Assembly (NCBI GenBank): GCA_007376285.1
Contig: VMFZ01000002.1
Location: forward strand, 1-52,042
From: Parcubacteria group bacterium Gr01-1014_17
GTDB lineage: Bacteria > Patescibacteriota > Minisyncoccia > Phycocordibacterales > UBA10002
Length of the DNA stretch: 52,042 nucleotides
Reading direction: 5' to 3'
Part shown: positions 5,071 to 23,196 of the stretch, piece by piece
Position numbering within the stretch: position 1 is the first letter of the stretch
How the letters are laid out: every line of letters starts with the position of its first letter
Notes under the pieces: generated by a model
The model's database searches: none
Seen by the model: the letters and a program-made list of their open reading frames with translations, nothing else
What the model was told of the DNA's origin: nothing
Translations under genes and position numbers: made by a program

Positions 5071-6298
5071 TTATTTCCAATTAAGCATCAAGAGATTAAA
5101 ATCCAAAATGTCTACCGCGCTGTCGCGGTTCAAGTCAGCGCCAGTATAAAACGGCCCTGCTGACACAACTCCTCCCCACACCGCAAACAAAATATTGAAA
5201 TCAAAAATATCGGTGTTTCCATCTCCGTTCATATCGCCCACTGAAGACGGTACACCAAATCCAGCCGGTCCATTGCCCCTCAAACTCACCACCGTTGACT
5301 GTCCCGACTCAAGCGCGGCAAATGAAGTAAAGTGATAGGTATGCACCTTTGTATCGGCCCCATTTGAAATAGCACATTCGCCGGGGAAAACCGGTGCAGA
5401 CGGTGCGTCATAGGTGCCACCGCACCCGTTTGCAATCTGAACCCACGCAGTTGAACCAGATGACTTGTACCCTACCGTGCCAGTAACTCCTGATAACACG
5501 ACAGATACTGGCTTATCGAAAAGAAGCACGCCCGCTGACGAACCGACTTCAAAAATCGTGCCGCCGACTGAAAACCCGACGGGAGGTTCCCCAGAACGCG
5601 ACACGGCTTTTGGGGGTGCGATGGTTCCGTCCCAGCCCTTGAATCACGACTGCCTTGCCCACTGATACAGTTTGCCCACCGACAAAAATCGGAATACTTA
5701 AATCAACTGATACTAAATTGCCGTTAGTAAAAGCCGAAAGGTTCTTCACTGCGCCGCCTATAATAACCTGCCCCGCAGATGCGGTATTTACAGAGGCAGA
5801 TACATCAAGCGATGTGGTGTTGCTCAATTTCACGGAAGTTGCTTGATTCGGCAGTGCCGCAGAGCCAACGCCCACGGTCGTGAGTGCCGCGTTTTCGGTG
5901 CGTGCGTCAATCAAAGAAAGAAGATACGAAAATGACACTGCGGTTGACTCCGTACTGTTCGGATAGCACGAAATCGCTTTTATGGTCTGCGTTTTCTTCA
6001 CGGAAATTGGCACAGAATAAATTGCGCCGCTTGCGCATGTTGGCGTTGTGCCGTCTGTCGTGTAACGAATACTCGTGGAACTATCCGCGGAAAGTGCGAT
6101 GCTCTGCGCGGCGTTGTAGGTACCGGCAGACGGAATCGCGGACGGGGCGAACGCGACAAAACCGCTTTGCGCCGGCGCGCAGCCAGTGCTCGTTGCAGTC
6201 AAAGAAAGCGTGCATAAAATTTCAGATGCAAACGAATTAGTGCCCGATATAAGGAATAAGATTGCTATCGTCAGTATCACAAAAGAATTTTTTCTCAT
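5071..6298 (-). pseudogene. Secreted Fn3-associated/chitobiase C-terminal + dockerin protein, frameshifted near 5638
   Basis: 5' ORF has a signal peptide and IRYTTDGTTP. The reading continues in another frame (GWDGTIAPPK..) to a dockerin (GDMNGDGNTDIFDF..ADLNRDSAVDILDF). Confidence 0.75.
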
Positions 6299-10685: not shown

Positions 10686-10694
10686 TGTGGATAA
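10686..10694 (-). promoter_or_regulatory. Consensus DnaA box
   Basis: TGTGGATAA (reverse complement TTATCCACA), intergenic. Confidence 0.45.
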
Positions 10695-10711: not shown

Positions 10712-12766
10712 TTATTGTTCCTCTTCAATTTTCTTTCTGATATATTCTGCTTTTTCGTACTGCCCCACTCTCTCATACGAATCCGCAAGCCGGTTGTCTA
10801 AAAACATTGTTTCCCCAAAGATTTTCTTCATATACGCGTCGGCTTCAACATATTTGCGCGCGTACACGAGTGAAATAGCATATAACCGTTTGGATTCTAT
10901 GTCCTCGCCGTCGGGTAAGATGTCCGCGGCTTGTTTAAAGATTGTCACCGCTTTATCAAACTTTCCCATATTCAGAAAACTGGTTCCCCATTCATAAAGC
11001 GAGGGTTGTTTGTTCGGTGAAAGGGCTACTGCTTTTTCCAAAAACGGTACAGCGGCGGCATACTGCCGATAGGTGTTGAGCACCGTACCAAGCCGCAAAA
11101 GATATCGCGGGTCGCCGGGCGATTCTGCAATCTGCTGCGATAACTCTTGCGTAACTAATGAGACAATTTTAGCGCGCGATTCATCTTTAAGCGGTACACT
11201 AGAAACATCAACGGCAAATTGTGCGAGCATTTCGCGTGCTTCGGTGGTCGCAAATGTGTTGAGCGAGATGGCGCGGGTAAAATATCCGAGCCGCTCATCC
11301 AGATTGGGAGAGGGGCTCCGAAGCCCAAGATTAATGGCGTGCGCCGCAACGGCGGGTTTTGCGATGGTGAAATAAAAAATAATACTGGCTATAGCACAAA
11401 CCAAGAAAATAAAAAACATCCTCCGATTTTCGGAAGCTCCCCCTTTCAAGGGGGGTTGGGGGGATGTGATTGTGTATTCCGCGAAGCGTTTTTTTGACTC
11501 TGCATACGCCAAAAACGAGAAGAAAATTATTGACGATGTAACTGTATCAAAAGAAAAGATATTAAACGCGGCATATCCTGCAAACATTCCGGAAAGTGCG
11601 ACTTTTTCCCACGAGGAAAAAGCGGCAACGCGGCGACTCCAGACCGCGCGCGCGAGCCCAACCCAAAGCGCGAGGTACGCAAGCAAACCAATACCACCCG
11701 CCTGCACAAGCCAATCAAGATAAGTGTTGTGTGCGCGGTCAAACCATTGTTCCCGCCCATACAAGCGCGGGTCGTAATATTTCACAAAAACAGAGCGATA
11801 CCCTTCGGGACCCCAACCGAACAGCGAACGCTCTTTCGCCCCTTGAAGCGCAATCTTCCATGACAAAAACCGCGCTTCTGCATCTTGTCCGGTGAGTGAA
11901 ATAGAAAGAAGGCGGCCAAGCAATGGATGAGCCGTGGCAGAGGGAATCTGGCGCAAAGCAAAAAATAACCCAACAAAGAGCGCGAGCCCCGCGAGCGCTG
12001 CAATGCTAAACCGCTTTATACTCACACTTTCTTTACAAAGCAAAAATGCCGCGCTTCCGGATACAAAAAGCGCTACGGGAAGCGCGACAAACGCGCTTCT
12101 TGTTCCCGAAGCAAGTGCGAGAAAAACAAACAATGCGGAGCAGGTGGTATACATGAGACGCCGTCGCCGCACCATCTCACCTGAAGCGAGAAAGAGCCCG
12201 AGCCCAGCCGAAAGCAGCATATAAGCGGCAAAAAATGAAGGGTTACCGACGGTTGCATCAATACGCAACACTCCTTGGTGTGTAGGAAGAACACTCACAA
12301 GTTGAAGAAGTGCAATGACGGACACGATGATAGCCGTCCCGATGAAGGTGTTAAAAAAAATCTTCCAAGATTTTTCGTCTAATAAATGGGACGCAGAAAA
12401 GAAAAACGCTGCAAGAAAAAGCGCGCCCACTAATCCGTCCATCCGTTCAAGCGTTGACCAAAATGCCAAAGACGGATATGGCGCGAGCATGGTTGCACTA
12501 CCAATCAAAATTATAAATACAGACATCGCCCATACCAAAAACGAGGAACGCGGCCGAAAGCGCTCGGGCGACTGAACCCATAGCAAAATCCAGCACGCCA
12601 ATGCCATGAGTGCGAGTGCTCGAAAAAAGAAATTCCTACCGCTCGTATAGGGAAACAAAAAACCTAGGTACACCGCGAGCGGAGTAAGCGGAATCAAAAA
12701 CAGAACGCTGACACCAACACGCCGCGTCAACCAAGTCATAGTATTATGATGTGCGAAACCCAGCAT
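10712..12766 (-). CDS. O-antigen ligase (Wzy_C)-like oligosaccharyltransferase with C-terminal TPRs, paralog 1
   Basis: Multi-TM; RIDATVGNP, FGWGPEGY, DRAHNTYLD; TPR tail. Confidence 0.88.
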   Translation of the reverse strand: MLGFAHHNTMTWLTRRVGVSVLFLIPLTPLAVYLGFLFPYTSGRNFFFRALALMALACWILLWVQSPERFRPRSSFLVWAMSVFIILIGSATMLAPYPSLAFWSTLERMDGLVGALFLAAFFFSASHLLDEKSWKIFFNTFIGTAIIVSVIALLQLVSVLPTHQGVLRIDATVGNPSFFAAYMLLSAGLGLFLASGEMVRRRRLMYTTCSALFVFLALASGTRSAFVALPVALFVSGSAAFLLCKESVSIKRFSIAALAGLALFVGLFFALRQIPSATAHPLLGRLLSISLTGQDAEARFLSWKIALQGAKERSLFGWGPEGYRSVFVKYYDPRLYGREQWFDRAHNTYLDWLVQAGGIGLLAYLALWVGLARAVWSRRVAAFSSWEKVALSGMFAGYAAFNIFSFDTVTSSIIFFSFLAYAESKKRFAEYTITSPQPPLKGGASENRRMFFIFLVCAIASIIFYFTIAKPAVAAHAINLGLRSPSPNLDERLGYFTRAISLNTFATTEAREMLAQFAVDVSSVPLKDESRAKIVSLVTQELSQQIAESPGDPRYLLRLGTVLNTYRQYAAAVPFLEKAVALSPNKQPSLYEWGTSFLNMGKFDKAVTIFKQAADILPDGEDIESKRLYAISLVYARKYVEADAYMKKIFGETMFLDNRLADSYERVGQYEKAEYIRKKIEEEQ

Positions 12767-12771
12767 AAGAG

Positions 12772-14997
12772 CTATCTTTTTCTTCTCAATACACCGTTCG
12801 ACGATTGAATGATCTTTATCATACTGTCGGCATCGACTGCGTATTGAGGACTCTTTTTTAGACCTTCTTGTATTTCTTTTATTGCCATTTCTTCAGGATA
12901 TCCGGCGAAAAATAGCGCACCTCCGTAACGGATTTGTGCAAGACCATTATTCGGCTCTATTTTTAATAAGTTACGATATGTGTTAATTAACTCTTCGTCT
13001 TTACCTGCTTCAGTGTATGCCCGAATAATTCGTTCATCAACGACATAGGGGTCAGGGAACAATGGTGGAATTAACACTTTTTTAACTTCAGCTGTATTAC
13101 CGTTGTAGATAAGCCCAACTGCATAAATAATAGCGGCCTCGCGATTTTCCATATTCAACTCGTAGGCGGTTTTGAAGTACGGAACCGCTTCTTGCGCTCT
13201 TCCCACATTCAACCGATTGCCTCCAATTTGGAACAAAAGCGCTTGTTTGTGCGGTGACTGCGCAATGGCGGTCTGCCAATAGGGAAACGCTTGTTTATAC
13301 AACTTAAACGCATCAAGTAGTGACGCCAAAAGCGTGTAGTAGCGCGCATCCGCGGGGCGTTTCTTTATTTCCTTATCAATCTCGCTCGCCGCAACATTCA
13401 GAAACTCCTGCTTCACGGCAACGGGGACTTGTGAAAGTGGTGCTACCGCGGCGGTGACTTGCGCAAGTTGTTCACGAATTTCTGCGTTTGCAAAAGTATT
13501 CAATGCAAGCGCGCGGCGAAACAACGCAAGATTTTCCGAAGGACCTCCTTGGTGTGCGTGAAGCGCTTGCAAAAGCAAGGTACCGGCATACGCGGGACGC
13601 GCATTGAACCAGTACAAAGAAAATGAGAGCACCGCAATAATGGCCGGCGCGCAGGCGCGCGCGACGGCACTCTTTGATGCAAATACGCGCGAGTGAAAGA
13701 GGGGCGCAACTCCTTCCGTTGCACGCGAATAGACATACGCGAGCAACATAAAAAACAAAAAATAACTGGTACCGTTATCAAACACAAACACATTGTTCAC
13801 GGCGTATGCTGTTCCAAAGCCCGCAAAAAGCGCGCGCTCTGCGAAGTCGAAAAGCGGACGACCGCGCGGAGCTTTGGCGCGAAGTATAATTCGTGCGGCA
13901 AAAAACCAGAGCGCAAGATAACCAAAAATTCCAAAAATCCCCCCAGCAATCATCCAGTCAAGATAGGTATTGTGTGCACGGTCAAACCACGCTTCGCGGT
14001 GATACAAACGCGGGTCGTAGTGCTTGTTGAACACAAAATTAAACCCTTCTTGCCCCCAACCAAACAGCGGCCGCTCTGTAAATCCTTTCCACGAAATCTG
14101 CCATATCACAAAACGCGCTTGCGCGTCATCGTTCATTGGAGACGCGGAAAGAATACGACCGAATATCGGATGGTTGCGTAAGTAAGATACTTCCCGTGCC
14201 GTAAAGAATCCGCCGACGGCAAGAAGCGCAAGCACGCATCCCACCATGCCCACGCGCCGAAAGCGAGAAGAGACGCCGCGCGAAAATGCGATGAGCATGG
14301 ACCCTGCGACAAAACCGACAAATAACCCCAGGATTGCGCCGCGCGTTGCGGAAAGAAACACGAGCACCACATTGCCGAGCGCAATCGCCGAAAAACCACC
14401 GACCCACCATGCGTTCTTACCCGCCGTACGCGCATGGTATGCGGTAAGAAGAGCAAAAAAGAGGTGGAACAGCGCATACACGCCAAGGTATATCGCATTG
14501 CCGAAGGTCGCGTCTACACGCACGCCGCCCTGATTTATGTTCAGTACGCCGAAAAATTGAAGCAAAGAATAACCAATTATGAGTACATTTACGCAAAGCG
14601 ACGCGAGCACGAATGTGCGCCATTCTTTTGCGCGAAACATTGCGCCAGCGACGACAAAGTAGAGCGCGAAATGCGCGACGCCTATAAGCCCCTCCATTCG
14701 TTCAAAATTGGACCAGAAACTTTTGTACGGGTCCTCGGCAAGCAGTGTAGATACGCCGAGTGTTACAACAAAAAATAAAACACTCCACAAAAGAGCCGAG
14801 CGGCGCGGGCGATATTCCGGATTTCGGAATGAGAGGATGAGCCACGCGGCGAATGCAATTTCTGCGAGAATCCGAAACGCGAAATTTTTACCGCTAATAA
14901 AAGGGAAAAAAAGCGAATTGGAAACAAAAAGCGGCACAAACACCGCGGCAATAAGTGCGCCTAGAACCGTCCATCGTAATGCTTTATTAAAAGTCAT
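12772..14997 (-). CDS. O-antigen ligase (Wzy_C)-like oligosaccharyltransferase with C-terminal TPRs, paralog 2
   Basis: RVDATFGNA, FGWGQEGF, DRAHNTYLD; TPR tail. Confidence 0.88.
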   Translation of the reverse strand: MTFNKALRWTVLGALIAAVFVPLFVSNSLFFPFISGKNFAFRILAEIAFAAWLILSFRNPEYRPRRSALLWSVLFFVVTLGVSTLLAEDPYKSFWSNFERMEGLIGVAHFALYFVVAGAMFRAKEWRTFVLASLCVNVLIIGYSLLQFFGVLNINQGGVRVDATFGNAIYLGVYALFHLFFALLTAYHARTAGKNAWWVGGFSAIALGNVVLVFLSATRGAILGLFVGFVAGSMLIAFSRGVSSRFRRVGMVGCVLALLAVGGFFTAREVSYLRNHPIFGRILSASPMNDDAQARFVIWQISWKGFTERPLFGWGQEGFNFVFNKHYDPRLYHREAWFDRAHNTYLDWMIAGGIFGIFGYLALWFFAARIILRAKAPRGRPLFDFAERALFAGFGTAYAVNNVFVFDNGTSYFLFFMLLAYVYSRATEGVAPLFHSRVFASKSAVARACAPAIIAVLSFSLYWFNARPAYAGTLLLQALHAHQGGPSENLALFRRALALNTFANAEIREQLAQVTAAVAPLSQVPVAVKQEFLNVAASEIDKEIKKRPADARYYTLLASLLDAFKLYKQAFPYWQTAIAQSPHKQALLFQIGGNRLNVGRAQEAVPYFKTAYELNMENREAAIIYAVGLIYNGNTAEVKKVLIPPLFPDPYVVDERIIRAYTEAGKDEELINTYRNLLKIEPNNGLAQIRYGGALFFAGYPEEMAIKEIQEGLKKSPQYAVDADSMIKIIQSSNGVLRRKR

Positions 14998-15916: not shown

Positions 15917-18900
15917 TTAGAGCGCTTTGTCGCTCAAGGTTTGCGGAGTCAGGTTGCTGGTTGGCAATCCTGCTACGCCATACCCGTTCAAGAAGTCGTT
16001 CGCAAGGGCGCCGGCCGTAATCGTTGTTTGCGTTGTCGTTGAGTACGGACTCCAGATGAAGTTGTCAGCACCCGCCAGTCCTGAGTTCACGAAGAATGTT
16101 GATGTTGCGAGGAATGAACCGTAGGTGGTCAAACTGCCGCTAGTCGGCGTTGAGGTCGCACCCGAGTATTCCGCAATATTAGCATAGAACTTCGTATCAC
16201 CCTGCAACTGTGTCGTTACCGAATAGGTCGTACCTGCTCCAGAGAGTGTCACATCACCGATAACTTCAAAGTACCGTGTGCCGCCCGCTGGAATTTGAAC
16301 CGTCGTAGACGCGTTCCCAGCGGTTTCCGCATAGATTTCAATGTCAGTTGAAGCGCTCGCCCACAAAGTGGGATTCATTGTTTTGTCGGTCGCCATAAGG
16401 GTACCGTCGGTCTGAATTCCGGAAACTATTCCTGTAAAGTCGGGATTAAGGAACGCGCGGACATTGATGTTATCCACCAAGTCGGCAATCACTGTCGCTG
16501 AAGATGTCGCGAACCGGAAAGTCAACTTGTTGATACCGATTGGACCCTTCGGAGAAGCAGTGATGCTGAATCTGTAGAGCGGCTTGTCAGAAGATGCGGT
16601 AAGCGAGGTACCGGTCGGAAGCGAAATATACTTCACCGTTGGTGTTGATTTCACGACGCGGAAGCCCGCTGATGCCGTATCGGAGCTCGTGCCACCGAGC
16701 GTCTTAGTTCCGCTCTGTGAGCCGGTACCAGCAACGCCTCCAAAACCAGTTGAAGCCGCGGATGTCCGAGTCGCCTCAAAGTCAACCGCAAGGAATGCGC
16801 CCGGAGTACCTGGTTGGCTGGTGCCTTGCGCTGCAAGGTCAACTTTGACCGTCAGGTCTTTATAGGCATCTTTGTCAACAATGAACTGAGAGCATCCTGC
16901 GCAAGTACTGACCGTTGTGGACGCCGTATTGTAATACGCGCCGGTCACAAAGGTCGCTTCGCCAACTTTATTCGCGCCGTCCCAGAGCGTCACTTTACCG
17001 CCACCCAAATCAGAGATTGAGCTAGACGCCTTTGCTGTTAACTGGAGCGCGATGTCGTTGATGCGCACCGCTTCGTTCGTTGCGCGAATGCGCAATACGC
17101 TTGCCACATAATCGGTCGTACCAGCCGCGGCAAGGGTATACGACGGGCTGTCTGCGGAGAGCTCAACCGTGAGCGAACCGCTGCTGGTTACCGTAATGGT
17201 CTGTCCGGCATTCGTATTCTCAGTAATCGTTACGGACGAACCGGATACCTTTCCGTTCGCGGTCGGAGATGATGCGTCGTTATAGCCGAACGAGAATGAA
17301 CCTGAGGTAATTGAAGACGGAATGTTGCACTTTGCCGCGAGCGTTAGCACCGTTCCTTTCGGAATCGTAAGCGTTGTGTCAAAGGTAAACGCTTGGCTAT
17401 TAGCATCACCTGCCGGGTCAACAGTGTTGGTTCCAGTTGTGAGCTGTGTTGAACCGTTGTAGAGGTTACAGCTCGTTACATTTGTGGAACCGCTGACCAA
17501 TTCATAGTCAAGTGGAAGTGAGTTCAAAGTCACATCCTCGCCTGAACTGATCGCAGACAACTGAATGTTTGCGAAGGTAAATTGCTGTGCGCCAGCGACA
17601 ATGGTCTGCGCCGACGGGCTTGAAGACACGCTAATCGCCAACGCCGCGGTCTTCACCGTCATGGTGCTTAATGCTACCGACGACGAGGTCATAGACGATG
17701 TTGAAATCGTCTTGCCTGTCACTTGACCGGTCACTGTAGTCCATGCCGTTGATGGCGTAAATGCAACTGCCACCGTGCCGTCTGAACCGAACCCTGAACC
17801 AACTTTTCCTTTCAATGTGTAGACCTTCTTGCCTACACCGTAGAGAATCGTATCACCCAAGGTCAAGGTGCCGGTGTGTCCAACATCTGCCGGACCAGCA
17901 ACCACCGTGCCATTTTCGTCAACGAGCGTTACATTGGTGATTTGCGCGTCGCCTCCAGCAGTCGCGCTACCGGTCGTCGTAAAGGTAAACGCGCTGGACG
18001 CAACCGTAATCGGCTCACCCTTCGTTTCTACAGAAAAACCACCGAGCGGTTGTCCTGCAAGTGTTACGGCAATGTTTGCCGCCGCAACTGATGTGGCATT
18101 CTGAATCGTGAGAGATCCTGTATCAACCGTTACGGTCTTGCCCGCGTACCAAATGGTGCCGCTGGTAAAACCCGTACCTGATGTCGGAGGCGTAATGCCG
18201 TATTTGTAGGTCTCACCCGTAATATAGATATCCGTGGTCTTTTCAATGTTAAACGCAACGGTGCGCCCAGAACCACCTACAATATCTCCCTTTAGGGAGA
18301 TTTCTTTGTTGAGGCCCTTCGCAATCACAATACCGCTTCCAAAGTTTGATGTGTAGTACTTTCCGTCTGAGGAAACTGTGGTTGGGTATGAAGTCCCGTC
18401 AACAATCGTCACGATATTCGCAAGGTCGGATGAACCAGCGGAAGACGCCTGATTCCACCGAATTGAGTGAATGCGTATGTCTTCTTGCGAGCCATCCGTA
18501 ACTTGGATAGCCGAGAATGTGTACCCTGTGATACCAACATTCTTGCTTGCCGCCGCATTCGGGTCAAGCGAACCTCGTTGGTTCGTTACAGAGCCGAGCG
18601 CCAGCGTTGAGTTGATGGTATGCGCCGCGCCGGTAATCGGGAGCGAGCCCGAAACCGCCGCAGAGGTGTTCACCGCAAGCAGTTTAAGGCTTGAGATTTC
18701 GCCCGCGCGCGCATCGTTGTTTGCCGCCATGTTGCCGGCAATCGTGTAGGTTTTTGAGGTGCCGGCTTTTATCGTAAACGCTTCGCCGAGCGTTGCTTGA
18801 TGATTGGAATTAAAGGTCTTGGAAACGCCGATTTGGGTGCCGTCCTCGCCAAGGAGAATGACGCCGCTAAACACTGCGTCACCCGCCAAAGCCGTGTGTT

Positions 18901-19573
18901 CAATTGTCAGGTTATTCACCGCCACATCGCCTGAACCGGCCGTGAGGGTGAACTTCGTAAACGGAACGCGCGCCGCGTTTTCAGGCGCGAGACCTGACGC
19001 TGGCTGTTGCGGAGAAGATACTACAAGTCCTGAGCCAGCCGGAACGGTTACCGTTGTGGTAGTCCCACCAGTTGTCGTGGTTGTAGTTGTCCCACCAGCT
19101 GAATTAACTTTTGCTCGAGTTGCAGGGCCGAAATATCCGACTGCTGGCGAAAGGCCGCTGGCTGCTTGATATTTCGCAACTGCTGAACGAGTCGCCGGAC
19201 CGAAGTAAGTTGACTCACTGCCAACAGAACCCGGACCGGACGCCGCTACAACATATCCTTTACTATTAAGAAACTTCTGAAGATCCTTCACATCGCTTCC
19301 AGTAGAACCTACCGTCAGATTACGAGTAAAGGTGGTGCTTGCAGTTGTCCCCGTTGAAGGAGAAGAAACTGCGGTGCGAGCTTGTGCCGCCTTGTCGGGA
19401 GAAATGATACCCAAGCTGATGAAAAGTTCCACCAGGTCTTTGAGCGTCATACTCTGTGCATTCGCAACTTGTACGAATGCTCCGGCAAAGAGAACCGCCG
19501 CCACTCCCACACCAACCAATCCTACCGCAAGCCATTTTGTCTTGGATGTATAAATGGTATTCATAAATAACAT
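15917..19573 (-). CDS. Large S-layer-like surface protein with N-terminal PG-binding domain
   Basis: Signal peptide; FTRNLTVGSTGSDVKDLQKFLN..YFGPATR; ~1000 aa of Ser/Thr/Gly/Ala-rich beta-type sequence; long leader and strong terminator. Confidence 0.8.
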   Translation of the reverse strand: MLFMNTIYTSKTKWLAVGLVGVGVAAVLFAGAFVQVANAQSMTLKDLVELFISLGIISPDKAAQARTAVSSPSTGTTASTTFTRNLTVGSTGSDVKDLQKFLNSKGYVVAASGPGSVGSESTYFGPATRSAVAKYQAASGLSPAVGYFGPATRAKVNSAGGTTTTTTTGGTTTTVTVPAGSGLVVSSPQQPASGLAPENAARVPFTKFTLTAGSGDVAVNNLTIEHTALAGDAVFSGVILLGEDGTQIGVSKTFNSNHQATLGEAFTIKAGTSKTYTIAGNMAANNDARAGEISSLKLLAVNTSAAVSGSLPITGAAHTINSTLALGSVTNQRGSLDPNAAASKNVGITGYTFSAIQVTDGSQEDIRIHSIRWNQASSAGSSDLANIVTIVDGTSYPTTVSSDGKYYTSNFGSGIVIAKGLNKEISLKGDIVGGSGRTVAFNIEKTTDIYITGETYKYGITPPTSGTGFTSGTIWYAGKTVTVDTGSLTIQNATSVAAANIAVTLAGQPLGGFSVETKGEPITVASSAFTFTTTGSATAGGDAQITNVTLVDENGTVVAGPADVGHTGTLTLGDTILYGVGKKVYTLKGKVGSGFGSDGTVAVAFTPSTAWTTVTGQVTGKTISTSSMTSSSVALSTMTVKTAALAISVSSSPSAQTIVAGAQQFTFANIQLSAISSGEDVTLNSLPLDYELVSGSTNVTSCNLYNGSTQLTTGTNTVDPAGDANSQAFTFDTTLTIPKGTVLTLAAKCNIPSSITSGSFSFGYNDASSPTANGKVSGSSVTITENTNAGQTITVTSSGSLTVELSADSPSYTLAAAGTTDYVASVLRIRATNEAVRINDIALQLTAKASSSISDLGGGKVTLWDGANKVGEATFVTGAYYNTASTTVSTCAGCSQFIVDKDAYKDLTVKVDLAAQGTSQPGTPGAFLAVDFEATRTSAASTGFGGVAGTGSQSGTKTLGGTSSDTASAGFRVVKSTPTVKYISLPTGTSLTASSDKPLYRFSITASPKGPIGINKLTFRFATSSATVIADLVDNINVRAFLNPDFTGIVSGIQTDGTLMATDKTMNPTLWASASTDIEIYAETAGNASTTVQIPAGGTRYFEVIGDVTLSGAGTTYSVTTQLQGDTKFYANIAEYSGATSTPTSGSLTTYGSFLATSTFFVNSGLAGADNFIWSPYSTTTQTTITAGALANDFLNGYGVAGLPTSNLTPQTLSDKAL

Positions 19574-19866
19574 AAATAACTAATTAAGTAACTGAATAAT
19601 TTTCTTCACGGTATTTATTAATAAAAACAATAATGCCGGAAGAAAAACTATATTTTTTTCTATAAACCGCGACTGCGGAACGCGCGCGTTCGACGCGCAC
19701 ACGCTCAAAGCGGTTTGGCATCCAGCCCTTACAGTAAGGGCTGGATCCAACTCTCTTTTTCTTTTTTCTGTCATCGCCAACAGAAATAAAAAGAGCTTGT
19801 TGGTTTGATAAAGTACCGTAACAAACATATGCGCTTATGAGTTTAACCTTATAGCGCAATGTATCT

Positions 19867-19947: not shown

Positions 19948-19956
19948 TGTGGATAA
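19948..19956 (-). promoter_or_regulatory. Consensus DnaA box
   Basis: TGTGGATAA in an AT-rich intergenic region. Confidence 0.45.
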
Positions 19957-19998
19957 CCCACATAATGTGAGTATTGCACAGCTCTTAAAACCAGTCAA

Positions 19999-20925
19999 TT
20001 AAGCGTCTTTTTCTCTTTCAAACAACAGCGGCTGAACAAAAGAATAGGAACTCCATCTCTTCTCTCCTAGTTTTTTCAATACACCCCTATCTACCAATTC
20101 GTATAATTCTCGTTGAATTGTTTTTTCTCCACAGTCATTTATAAAGGACAAAATCTCTTTAACGGTCAATTTCTTTTTGTCCTTTAGAGCATCTATAATT
20201 GCTTTTTGTCTCGCAAAACGCCTTTCTAACCTTATTTGTCTTATGTTTTTTGTCGTATCCTTTTTTACTAAAATGGAGACTTCTTTCTGTCCGTGAGATT
20301 CATAAAGGACATTATTAGTTGGCGGCATATTCTGTATCGGACTTATCAATTCATTTTCGTAATCTCTAACGGACAATTTGCGCGTCCCGCGCGGTCTTCC
20401 GCGCACCTGTTTCCGGCGAAAAGAAACTCCTTGTATTTTTGCAATCGGCAACGCAATATCCCCACCTTTCATTTTGAATATCTGAACATTAAAAATAGGG
20501 AAAAAACTCTGTATTTCATGCTTCAAAAGTGAAGTGTTCGCCTCCGAAACAGCTCCGCCTTCTTCTCCAACATTTAAGAGCGACACCAACACAGAAAGAC
20601 ATCCTAAGAAATGAGCGCGATGTATGGGTTCATTCGCTTTGTTTTTATCATCTCGTATAAAGGACATCACTCTATCAATTAGTTCTGTAGCCACTGTCCG
20701 TAACTTCCACTTTAATGGTTCACTGTCCGATAGAAAGTTTGTTATAAGGTATATCGCACGAACAAAGTTCTCCACCTTTTTAACAAGGAAAATCAAGTAC
20801 TTTCCTCCTATAAAGGACATATCTGGGTAATCGGTGACTTTATAAAGGACATTACTATTTGCCCTTATGTCCTTTATGGTGTTTTTGCTCATATTGTTCT
20901 GTCCTTTATAAATTCTAACGGACAT
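19999..20925 (-). CDS. DNA-binding protein with C-terminal winged HTH (DeoR-like); start uncertain
   Basis: RQKAIIDALKDKKKLTVKEI..GEKTIQRELYELVDRGVLKKLGEKRWSSY; helical N-terminal domain. Confidence 0.75.
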   Translation of the reverse strand: MSVRIYKGQNNMSKNTIKDIRANSNVLYKVTDYPDMSFIGGKYLIFLVKKVENFVRAIYLITNFLSDSEPLKWKLRTVATELIDRVMSFIRDDKNKANEPIHRAHFLGCLSVLVSLLNVGEEGGAVSEANTSLLKHEIQSFFPIFNVQIFKMKGGDIALPIAKIQGVSFRRKQVRGRPRGTRKLSVRDYENELISPIQNMPPTNNVLYESHGQKEVSILVKKDTTKNIRQIRLERRFARQKAIIDALKDKKKLTVKEILSFINDCGEKTIQRELYELVDRGVLKKLGEKRWSSYSFVQPLLFEREKDA

Positions 20926-20959
20926 CTATAAAGGACATAGCAAGTATACATAAAGGACA
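20141..20959. repeat. Dispersed array of the 10-mer ATAAAGGACA
   Basis: Exact copies at 20141, 20302, 20657, 20810, 20842, 20928, 20950 (+) and 20868, 20900 (-); variants at 20178, 20366, 20724, 20915. Confidence 0.92.
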
Positions 20960-21057
20960 TGTTCGTTATCAAGAAATTTTTGCTATAGGAAACGAAGGGA
21001 AGAATTATGCAAGGGTAATCGAAGTTCTTTTGAAGCGTATGCTATCATTACTTTAAT

Positions 21058-23196
21058 ATGGCAAAAAGAAACAAAGAACGGGGATGGCATTCAATTAAAC
21101 TGGAAACATGGCGCGGTATCGCCACGGTGATTTTATTGGCGCTTGCAATATTTTCGGTTCTTTCTGGTATAGGTAAAGCTGGCGCTGTCGGTACTGTATT
21201 TTTTAACACGCTATCGAATATATTCGGTGTCGCCTATGTTCTCATTCCTCTTGTATTGTTAGGCGGCGGTATACTGATGCTCCGTCCATCAGAAAACGAG
21301 AATATGGCGCCAATCATCAAGATTGTATGTTTGTTTGTCTTTATTGCCGGAGCGCTCGGGCTTATAGGACTCTTCCTTCCATCGCGCGGGGGGCTTGCAG
21401 GAGTTTCAATGGCCAATTTCTTTGTATCGCTTTTTGACCGCTATGCAAGCGCGGTGATACTTAGTGCGCTTACAGTCATACCTCTCTTGATTATATTCAA
21501 CACACGCTTTTCATTTTCGTCGTTTGTGAACGCGTGGCAAAAAATAGTCGGAATCATTCGCCCGCCTATGCGTGTTTCCGATGAAATCGCAGATACAGCG
21601 ACCGTCTATGAACAAAATACCGATGAAACAGAAACCCATGAAAACAACGCGGGCGCCGCAGAAACATCTGAACCCTCAATCCAAACTGACGATAACGGCT
21701 GGCAACCAAGAAAATCTACGCGCCTTAAATTCGGAGCGTATGAGCCGCCGCCGTTATCTATTCTTGAACGCGACCAAGGAAAACCAGATGTTGGCGACAT
21801 AAAAGCAAATTCAAATGTAGTAAAGCGTACCCTTCGAAACTTCGGCATTGAAGTTGAGATGGATGAAGTGTCTATCGGACCATCGGTAACTCGCTATGCG
21901 CTTAAACCAGCGGAAGGAGTCAAACTAACCGCAATCGTTGCGCGTCAGAACGACCTCGCTCTCGCGCTTGCAGCGCACTCTATAAGAATTGAAGCGCCGA
22001 TTCCAGGCAGGTCACTCGTTGGTATTGAAATCCCAAACCAGGCGCGCGCTACAGTTCGGCTCGGCGCGCTTATTGGAAGCGAGGAATTCGCGTCATCCGA
22101 CAAACATCTGCTTTTTGCGCTCGGCAAAAGCGTTGCAGGCAAACAGCACTTCACTAACCTCGCAAGAATGCCGCACCTTCTTATCGCCGGAGCAACGGGC
22201 TCGGGAAAATCAGTAGCAATTCATACGCTTGTTGCATCGCTCATTTACCGCAATTCTCCGGAAGCGCTCCGCTTTATGCTCATTGACCCGAAGCGGGTAG
22301 AACTCACGCTTTATAACGGCATACCGCACCTGTTAACCCCCGTGATTACGGATGCAAAAAAAGCGATACAGGCATTGCGGTGGGCGGCAAAAGAAATGGA
22401 ACGGAGGTACAACATTCTGGAAGGAGAATCGGTGCGCGACATTGATTCATATCACAAAAATGTATTTCTTCCTGCGCGTGAAAAAGCGGACCCAATGCCG
22501 TATATCGTAATTATTATTGACGAACTTGCTGACATTATGTCTACCTACCCGCGCGAACTTGAGGCGGCCGTCGTTCGTCTAGCGCAGATGAGCCGTGCGG
22601 TCGGTATTCACCTCGTGCTCTCTACTCAGCGCCCGTCAGTCAATGTCATTACGGGACTTATCAAAGCAAATATACCATCGCGTATCGCGCTCCAAGTGGT
22701 CTCGCAGATTGACTCGCGCACTATTTTGGATGCCGCTGGAGCCGAGAAACTTCTCGGAAGCGGTGATATGCTCTTTCTATCGGGAGAACGCTCTAAGCCC
22801 GAACGCATCCAGTCCGCATTTATTTCCGAACATGAAGTCAAAAAGATTACAAGCTATCTTACCAACCGATACCCGGATAGAGGCGGCACGGAACTCCTCA
22901 CGCCAAACGGGAATGTATCTTCTGGCGCACTGGAGCACTCATTTACGGATAGCGATGATGTAGATGACGACCTCTATGAAGCCGCGAAAGAAGAAGTGGA
23001 ACGGGCGGGTAAGGCCTCTACTTCGTACTTGCAACGGAAACTGCGCGTCGGCTATGCGCGCGCGGCGCGGATTATGGACATTCTTGAAGAGCGCGGCATT
23101 ATAGGACCGTCTGACGGCGCAAAGCCGCGCGAGATTCGTAGTGGCCTATCGCAAGAATCTCCTCTTGCACCAACCCTTCCAGAGGAAACAGTATGA
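21058..23196 (+). CDS. ftsK: DNA translocase FtsK/SpoIIIE
   Basis: 4 TM N-terminus; PHLLIAGATGSGKS, IIIDELAD, LSTQRPS; gamma domain ASTSYLQRKLRVGYARAAR. Confidence 0.97.
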   Translation: MAKRNKERGWHSIKLETWRGIATVILLALAIFSVLSGIGKAGAVGTVFFNTLSNIFGVAYVLIPLVLLGGGILMLRPSENENMAPIIKIVCLFVFIAGALGLIGLFLPSRGGLAGVSMANFFVSLFDRYASAVILSALTVIPLLIIFNTRFSFSSFVNAWQKIVGIIRPPMRVSDEIADTATVYEQNTDETETHENNAGAAETSEPSIQTDDNGWQPRKSTRLKFGAYEPPPLSILERDQGKPDVGDIKANSNVVKRTLRNFGIEVEMDEVSIGPSVTRYALKPAEGVKLTAIVARQNDLALALAAHSIRIEAPIPGRSLVGIEIPNQARATVRLGALIGSEEFASSDKHLLFALGKSVAGKQHFTNLARMPHLLIAGATGSGKSVAIHTLVASLIYRNSPEALRFMLIDPKRVELTLYNGIPHLLTPVITDAKKAIQALRWAAKEMERRYNILEGESVRDIDSYHKNVFLPAREKADPMPYIVIIIDELADIMSTYPRELEAAVVRLAQMSRAVGIHLVLSTQRPSVNVITGLIKANIPSRIALQVVSQIDSRTILDAAGAEKLLGSGDMLFLSGERSKPERIQSAFISEHEVKKITSYLTNRYPDRGGTELLTPNGNVSSGALEHSFTDSDDVDDDLYEAAKEEVERAGKASTSYLQRKLRVGYARAARIMDILEERGIIGPSDGAKPREIRSGLSQESPLAPTLPEETV

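Follow-up and report, generated by a model that had tools for sequence, protein, structure and literature searches.

What binds a dense array of ten-base repeats that covers the promoter and the body of a single gene? The question is raised by a 52,042-base stretch of DNA from Parcubacteria group bacterium Gr01-1014_17, hereafter the window, which is contig C14 of the source genome (G000; 610,266 bp in 30 contigs). In this window, the repeat ATAAAGGACA is scattered over a minus-strand gene coding for a winged-helix protein. A first-pass annotation had proposed that the protein binds the array and that both form a self-contained locus, parS-, iteron- or ter-like and not a ParB/parS system. Our analysis leads us to favour, with moderate confidence, a reading in which the protein would be an autoregulated multivalent repressor or architectural protein, the array being its own operator set, with a tie to the centromere region. 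Judged from the sequences, the repeats are most likely the recognition sites of the protein encoded there, whose proposed target is arrays of TATAAAGGACAT.

The array is genuine, departs strongly from randomness and has a function at the level of DNA. Exact ATAAAGGACA matches the window nine times, always within 20141-20959 (7 on the plus and 2 on the minus strand), for a dinucleotide-shuffle expectation of 0.08 on average and 1 at most. With up to one mismatch there are 10 matches, all within the array stretch, for 2.74 expected. With up to two mismatches, 14 matches lie in 19948-20959 and 51 across the remaining window, which makes the former ~14 times denser; of these 14, the ones at 20133 and 20256 look like chance. 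Three variants are convincing (CTAAAGGACA at 20178 on the minus strand, CTAACGGACA at 20366 and 20915 on the plus strand), and the good sites total 12 across the promoter and body of the gene, which is divergent from ftsK. The first-pass description of nine exact copies in ~820 bp, in both orientations and several reading frames, thus stands: the motif uses two frames per orientation and writes the peptides MSFI, VLYK, IKDI, YKGQ, LSFI and LKDK. As also described, the array is densest at the gene start, 8 of the 12 good sites lying in 20810-20959, and exact or one-mismatch copies are absent from the rest of the window. The count of at least four variants is reached only if three weaker GGACA-core variants, readable near 20287, 20695 and 20722, are included. 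The gene, its predicted promoter and the sites are as follows.

19999-20892, minus strand: gene for the DNA-binding protein, 297 amino acids (the form in the protein collection)
20943-20972, minus strand: predicted promoter of this gene, with -35 TTGATA (20972-20967), an 18-nt spacer and -10 TATACT (20948-20943)
20810-20959, both strands: 8 closely packed sites that span promoter, 5' leader and the initial ~28 codons, located at 20810 (+), 20842 (+), 20868 (-), 20900 (-), 20915 (+, CTAACGGACA), 20928 (+) and 20950 (+), plus overlapping leader sites
20657-20666, plus strand: site in the four-helix-bundle coding part, encoding MSFI, invariant in six orthologs
20366-20375, plus strand: variant site CTAACGGACA in the linker coding part
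20302-20311, plus strand: site in the linker coding part, encoding VLYE
20178-20187, minus strand: one-mismatch site CTAAAGGACA, encoding LKDK
20141-20150, plus strand: site in the winged-helix coding part, encoding LSFI

Mapping the motif over the source genome showed that it is not evenly spread, and also that the locus is not self-contained as had been claimed. Exact ATAAAGGACA has 18 copies, nine in the window and nine at C27:11654-14197, and the reversed control has one. The relaxed pattern TAA[ACGT]GGACA has 49 copies, of which 12 are in the window and 23 in a second, larger cluster on contig C27 (11655-14206). These two loci hold 35 of the 49; the remaining 14 are scattered singles, mostly inside genes.

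Gene and array stay together among relatives. A single-sequence query found orthologs in 33 of 41 related genomes and in 19 of 21 genera, and the orthologs carry arrays of their own: two or more copies of TAAAGGACA, usually the top 9-mer, were counted in 27 of the 29 relatives' loci (~3-4 kb), and the motif persists at loci whose proteins share just ~25-35% identity. In a profile search of 301 genomes of the phylum, two-domain matches came almost only from the same order, plus one genome numbered G112; the same class gave a few matches to the N-terminal domain, and elsewhere the winged helix was matched alone. By these profiles, the protein is confined to a single order of Parcubacteria-like bacteria. 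Eleven winged-helix-only loci in other orders showed neither arrays nor ftsK synteny. Like the site, which is invariant, the recognition helix (SEKT[ILV]QR) and the wing (RRWS.Y) hardly vary. Across 60 loci, 423 sites give the consensus T[A/C]TAAAGGACAT. Spacings between neighbouring sites in direct orientation (157 pairs) peak at 12-13 bp (42), 21-24 bp (43) and 32 bp (9), and the most frequent inverted arrangement is an 18-bp palindrome, TAAAGGACATGTCCTTTA.

We aligned six orthologs (56-77% protein identity) with the source genome as reference. Site columns (n = 108) are 92% identical to the reference and 74% invariant, and all other columns (n = 899) are 73% identical and 38% invariant. At third codon positions, identity reaches 93% within sites (n = 30) and 60% outside them (n = 279). 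Since both site orientations occur within one transcript, the constraint is on DNA and not on RNA. Peptides that the site encodes, for example YKGQ, YKGH, VLYK and SFI, abound in the variable N-terminus and linker of distant orthologs. The proposal that the protein binds this array is therefore upheld to the extent that both appear to belong together (27 of 29 loci, synonymous conservation, near-invariant helix), while binding itself is what we infer, as are the oligomeric state, the repression and any effect on ParB.

Part of the array lies on the predicted promoter of the gene itself. Transcription is predicted to start at ~20936 on the minus strand. The site at 20950-20959 occupies the -35/-10 spacer and abuts the -10 (TGTCCTTTAT...), and three further sites follow within ~45 nt, the AAGGA of the last one standing at the Shine-Dalgarno position for ATG 20892. 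This ATG is the likely start of the gene from its sequence context; a longer reading frame, 19999-20925, would begin at ATG 20925 and code for 308 amino acids. We prefer ATG 20892 because ATG 20925 falls within ~10 nt of the predicted transcription start and because the Shine-Dalgarno-like core AAGGA precedes 20892. The promoter element is aligned and conserved in five close orthologs, where the -10 reads TATAAT, and so is the arrangement of one site at the spacer or -10 plus three sites after the predicted start. Distant orthologs present a TATAAT-like hexamer between GGACA half-sites, with 2-4 full sites just downstream. Such a layout suggests a negatively autoregulated gene. With sites in the -35/-10 spacer, right against the -10 and over the initial ~45 nt of the transcript, the protein is expected to repress itself.

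The gene is single-copy in the source genome. AlphaFold models its product (mean predicted local distance difference test score, pLDDT, 72.6; 308-residue numbering) as a four-helix bundle at 41-154, a disordered stretch at 155-225 and a winged helix at 228-298, with bundle and winged helix both above a pLDDT of 90. Structure comparison showed that the winged helix resembles MecI, BlaI, ArsR and MarR chains. The top four VIA matches of the bundle (4dwl_A, 2gsc_A, 2rld_A and 8ub7_B; Z 13.3-13.6, root-mean-square deviation 2.1-2.9 over 105-116 residues) all come from one family, that of phage Avd (4dwl, 8ub7) and the 23S-rRNA-IVS-type proteins (2gsc, 2rld), and the best Foldseek match is again 2gsc (TM 0.7-0.8). 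By structure match, the model thus contains a four-helix bundle of ~110 residues with Avd/PF05635 topology. By sequence the protein is not a member: Pfam gave no PF05635 match in the window protein, and one of 59 family members touched this profile (E = 0.005). A weak HTH_DeoR match was obtained for 34 of the 59 (E at most 0.01). Neither Pfam nor NCBIfam gave a DeoRC sensor domain or a Rep family in the protein, Pfam gave no ParB_N, NCBIfam gave weak HTH matches at most, and a search of PDB sequences with the family profile returned just 1p6r (E = 0.2). Homologs from Parcubacteria, Yonathbacteria and Patescibacteria are named just "hypothetical", and the ESM Atlas returned only unnamed clusters from the same phylum, called Minisyncoccota there.

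Avd is a pentameric barrel (PMC6182149), and from the model, the Avd-like bundle is a candidate hub for oligomerisation. When two copies of the bundle (residues 38-165) were modelled as a homodimer, the score was 0.00, which counts neither way. Our literature searches found no precedent for an Avd-like bundle combined with a winged helix. The disordered linker also contains an AT-hook-like RGRPRG (window 20385-20402, residues ~175-180 of the 308-residue form), which in the family alignment is restricted to the close subclade with expanded arrays.

The second cluster, on C27, lies in the syntenic block pnp, NYN, rpsO, (xer, exoIII), cca, tRNAs, yraN, which is 25-38 kb from dnaA in five genomes. 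In relatives, 28 of 29 cca loci carry the motif and a control word is absent from 28 of 29. Two features of this locus are needed in what follows.

C27:11850-12110 (L074:1176-1432), plus strand: RNA X, an unannotated, predicted structured RNA convergent with cca; in relatives at L081:1051-1440 and others
C27:13218-13352 (L009:7219-7353): in-frame insertion of ~40-50 amino acids in cca, with the peptides HKGH, SKGH, YKGH, YKGQ and NVLYNS

RNA X measures 250-440 nt overall and has its own terminator, a 15-bp long-range helix, 18 base pairs with compensatory changes and a stem that is optional (6 of 9 sequences); compared to shuffles, it folds with z = -4.4. Rfam gave no family for its regions beyond terminator-like chance matches. 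RNase P RNA and tmRNA were rejected as identities, as those lie on C7 and C13. The 6S RNA and the small and large signal recognition particle RNAs were not found anywhere in the source genome, so RNA X could be a divergent one of these. In genomes of the G001 type, two sites 12 bp apart cover its -35 and spacer, followed by TATACT and a predicted transcript of 280-440 nt; in the source genome, the promoter reads TGTCCGTTATAAT and then another site. After tRNA-Gly comes a conserved module in which two DnaA-like boxes and an extended -10 overlapped by a site precede yraN. The winged-helix gene, RNA X and the DnaA-box/extended -10 module ahead of yraN share one promoter-site design.

Inside cca, the segment from RRDFTINA to F.EDALR normally measures 48-49 amino acids. 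In the subclade of the source genome it reaches 87-97 and consists almost wholly of 5-9 sites (8-9 in 4 of 6 genomes). An independent, smaller expansion is present in G040 (77 amino acids, 5 sites). Six other families have one or two sites at the same spot without insertion, and G001-type genomes have none.

This second cluster lies at the putative centromere. ParB_N was found in 37 of 41 genomes, including the source genome with its canonical ParB on C18, which rules out the idea that the lineage has no ParB. Matched to what we take to be the parS consensus, with up to two mismatches, the source genome has three parS-like sites (C27:11930, 12098 and 12909, spanning 11930-12924) and none elsewhere. 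They lie between one array that ends at 11848 (A) and another that starts at 13218 (B). The near-complete relative G036 has four such sites in 488 kb, all at C2:94483-94821, ~1 kb from motif sites. Altogether 35 of 41 relatives have parS-like sites. Of the 75 listed sites, 69 are no more than 3 kb from cca, and several sites fall within the coding sequence of cca or yraN; none occurs in the 102 kb made up by the 30 ortholog loci of the winged-helix gene. Because the second cluster brackets the only parS-like sites of the genome, a centromere link is plausible, but at the other locus. The statement that this is not a ParB/parS system accordingly holds for the protein, which lacks ParB_N, and for its site, which is not parS; it does not hold for the setting, where canonical ParB is present and parS-like sites are bracketed.

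We counted the bracketing in the 26 genomes with a parS-bearing locus. In 16 of them, both flanks of the parS cluster have the motif at a distance of at most 500 bp; 7 have it on one flank (three of these with truncated flanks) and 3 on neither, and a reversed control pattern gives no two-sided bracket (0/26). No motif site falls inside the parS span in 23 of the 26. The motif-parS distances recur, with ~82 bp for one flank and ~93 or ~294 bp for the opposite one. Genomes of the G001 type have parS within yraN, where it is flanked by the site at the yraN promoter and by sites that follow yraN (before the next tRNA). In the subclade of the source genome, yraN is devoid of parS, which lies in X and cca between expanded arrays, one being the cca insertion. 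Across these genomes, the bracket follows parS and not the genes. The bracketing evidence is suggestive, not decisive, since closely related genomes are no independent samples and since, in genomes as compact as these, brackets stand where promoters stand. On C27 of the source genome we also noted three hairpins that share the arms GATGTT...AAACATC (L009:5590-5640, 5925-5950 and 6125-6170). One contains a parS-like 16-mer, whereas the centre is longer in the other two; terminators or degenerate relatives of parS are possible identities.

In the mechanism that we propose, an Avd-like hub would carry several winged helices on disordered tethers of ~70 residues, and one particle would hold several sites at once, in either orientation and at spacings of 12, 22 or 32 bp. 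Tethered winged helices on a hub would explain why arrays run in either orientation at helically phased, variable spacing. The protein would repress its own gene, where sites in the gene body would add avidity or act as roadblocks, and would also occupy the cca/yraN cluster at the promoters of RNA X and yraN and on the flanks of parS.

The surroundings of the gene in the window were examined as well.

21058-23196, plus strand: ftsK (Pfam FtsK_SpoIIIE, FtsK_alpha and FtsK_gamma)
15917-19573, minus strand: large surface protein with a PG_binding_1 domain, downstream neighbour
19948-19956, minus strand: DnaA-box 9-mer TTATCCACA, a perfect match 43 nt past the stop codon

The winged-helix gene has ftsK, the PG-binding surface protein and recA as neighbours, and no cytomotive nucleoside triphosphatase (NTPase) gene (ParM, TubZ or ParA) lies beside it. 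Synteny with ftsK, in the divergent position first described, is kept in 22 of 29 ortholog loci, and synteny with the surface protein in 23 of 29. An extended -10 (TGCTATCAT, TGnTAnnAT) lies ~10-25 nt ahead of the ftsK ATG with no site within ~85 nt, and the distance from the sites to ftsK varies from ~85 to ~450 bp among orthologs. We rejected ftsK as a direct regulatory target on these two grounds, which together mean conserved synteny without a matching conserved operator. Between the winged-helix stop and the surface-protein start, window 19640-19800 forms a GC-rich hairpin region (GGATCCAGCCCTTAC.GTAAGGGCTGGATCC and a CGCG-rich stem), which may terminate transcription in both directions or be a long structured 5' leader; at the gathering threshold, Rfam gave no family for the window, this region included.

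The DnaA box reported just downstream of the gene is confirmed as a perfect 9-mer, but not as evidence for an origin. TTATCCACA has 22 copies in the source genome (control words have 2-7), at least 15 of them intergenic and typically 9-10 nt upstream of a TTGACA-like -35; the window has another copy at 10686-10694. From its distribution, the 9-mer looks like a general promoter-upstream element in this lineage, and being frequent and promoter-upstream genome-wide, it does not mark an origin at the window locus. The 19948-19956 box probably belongs to the promoter region of the next minus-strand gene. We also observed that TTATCCACA is often paired with the array motif, within 1-15 nt.

The iteron- or ter-like part of the first proposal did not survive. 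No GC-skew turning point was found in the window at 20 kb, and dnaA of the source genome, on C17, has no motif cluster beside it. In G036, cumulative GC skew has its minimum at C2 ~122 kb (at dnaA) and its maximum at C1 ~79 kb. The motif clusters of this genome lie at C2:95.8-97.1 kb, at C2:189.7 kb (the gene locus, with the gene at 189.8 kb) and at C1:238.2 kb. None is at a turning point; the nearest site is more than 140 kb from the maximum, and the opposed groups of a terminus were not found. On GC skew and dnaA positions, we rejected the origin and terminus readings. The third G036 cluster (C1:238199-238235; L042:6200-6236) consists of 3 sites in the gap that separates two divergent tRNA genes, with a TTGACA-N18-TATACT promoter immediately downstream of the sites, and has no equivalent in the source genome.

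Other explanations have to be weighed with these results. The protein might be a centromere boundary or organiser with a mainly structural job, which we consider a tentative but serious possibility. The arrays would be nucleoprotein plugs flanking parS that confine ParB clamps, and perhaps the loading of SMC (structural maintenance of chromosomes), to a zone of 1-1.5 kb, or that tether the region; the array on the gene itself would set the dose of the protein, and the ftsK neighbourhood would reflect a shared role in segregation. All parS-like sites of the source genome do lie between arrays, two-sided brackets number 16 of 26 for none in the control, and brackets track parS across the G001-type genomes and the subclade of the source genome. 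There is also a precedent, as RepE on its iterons is a roadblock to ParB on plasmid F (PMC7725951). However, bracket sites coincide with promoters in these compact genomes, where promoter control alone could place them; G036, G033 and G031 have no two-sided bracket, and many of the 16 bracketed genomes are close kin. Moreover, ParB is able to bypass roadblocks (PMC9242446), and the plasmid F data have no plateau of the kind expected of a strict barrier (PMC7725951). A more specific version, in which a dedicated, ParB-independent boundary protein fixes the size and position of the partition complex via flanking arrays, is a little more doubtful still; it adds that selection on the arrays would be strong enough to enter essential coding sequences (cca and the gene itself) and that the dose would be set by the array at the protein's own promoter.

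It is unlikely, in our opinion, that another factor, DnaA's partner or some other regulator, reads the sites and has the winged-helix gene as one of its targets. Such a factor would fit the frequent position of the motif 1-15 nt from a DnaA-box 9-mer, as well as the cca-locus sites of 6 genomes where the single-sequence query found no protein. In these 6 genomes, either the gene was missed in the assemblies or another factor reads the site; since short contigs often carry the array-rich loci, fragmented bins can miss the gene. The winged-helix gene is, on the other hand, the most consistently and densely covered target, coding sequence included, family and motif have the same order-level range, and the 11 distant winged-helix-only loci have no arrays. 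We give less credit still to the window locus as an independent centromere, iteron origin or terminus trap bound by the protein. The repeats in both orientations at a winged-helix gene, their helically phased spacings, the DnaA box and the nearby ftsK are what it accounts for. It has to face the absence of a skew turning point in the window, an origin and terminus located elsewhere in G036, no cytomotive NTPase gene, the presence of ParB, no parS-like site in the 102 kb of ortholog loci, a DnaA box that is common, and sites that map to the promoter of the gene; its origin and terminus versions are largely refuted. The least credible explanation is that the repeats have no function and were left behind by mutation or by something selfish (slippage, for instance, or a very small mobile repeat). 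Array size does vary by lineage and the cca insertion is built almost solely of sites, yet there are two loci per genome, positions and sequence are conserved across the order while spacers diverge, and placement relative to promoters and parS is fixed.

Several observations weigh against the autoregulated, centromere-linked protein that we favour. We found no usable covariation between recognition helix and site variants, and G031 has the same recognition helix without exact TAAAGGACA. The related genomes are non-independent samples, and the promoter elements are predictions from sequence. The locus was found in one DNA run, possibly the source, and in no RNA run with a meaningful share. Generic bundles score Z 11.8, which leaves the Avd family a margin of only ~1.5, and PF08220 (HTH_DeoR) matches residues 239-285 with 17.7 bits, below its cut-off of 21. 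The cca-locus sites in the 6 genomes mentioned above count here too, and the arrays of 8-9 sites inside the cca coding sequence are unexplained by promoter control.

If the proposed reading is true, the locus provides a clean protein-site pair from a lineage whose regulation and chromosome biology are almost unexamined; a literature search, which excluded supplements, returned nothing in print on the motif or the family, nor work on this system among studies of Parcubacteria or Patescibacteria regulators. The motif strings do occur in 396 papers, of which the 15 ranked highest have unrelated titles. Selection at the DNA level here overrides protein coding, as an essential enzyme has a site-built insertion and the sites write part of the regulator's linker. 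Because parS is bracketed in a conserved way, the locus bears on what limits the ParB partition complex in vivo. The analysis also points to an unannotated structured RNA under the same control.

Compared to known systems, the locus recalls several without matching one. TubR/tubC, ParR/parC and RacA/ram consist of a small DNA-binding protein on arrays of 11-12-bp repeats around its own promoter. The TubR and ParR systems have an adjacent filament-forming NTPase (TubZ, ParM), and RacA anchors polarly through DivIVA. In the window, the flanking genes code for FtsK and a surface protein, and tens of sites are gathered at two loci without regional scatter. With ParB/parS, the system shares sites that are tolerated inside genes and clustered near the origin; B. 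subtilis spo0J is an example of parS inside a coding sequence. Unlike ParB, the window protein has no ParB_N, its site is not the 16-bp parS palindrome, and ParB is coded elsewhere (C18). RepE, which autoregulates, offers a further likeness. On plasmid F, short-repeat arrays bound by a winged-helix protein lie beside a centromere, but the RepE complex is one-sided, 3-4.5 kb away, and serves replication (PMC7725951). In our case, brackets lie at ~80-300 bp around a chromosomal parS, there is no origin, and the protein is unrelated.

The Avd/23S-IVS family (PF05635) shares the fold of the four-helix bundle. In diversity-generating retroelements, the partners of Avd are a reverse transcriptase and RNA, whereas here the bundle is fused to a winged helix. 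The source genome has two RVT_1 matches (C21:33996-34598 and C13:11140-11742), neither on the window contig or C27, which may belong to diversity-generating retroelements or group II introns. Repressors of the BlaI/MecI, ArsR/MarR and DeoR types resemble the system by the winged-helix fold and by sites over their own -10 and early transcript, and DeoR loops DNA between operators. In contrast to DeoR, the protein has no C-terminal sensor or ligand domain and carries its DNA-binding domain C-terminally on a tether. It differs from autoregulated repressors in general by its 12 sites, which lie mostly in coding sequence, and by its two target loci per genome.

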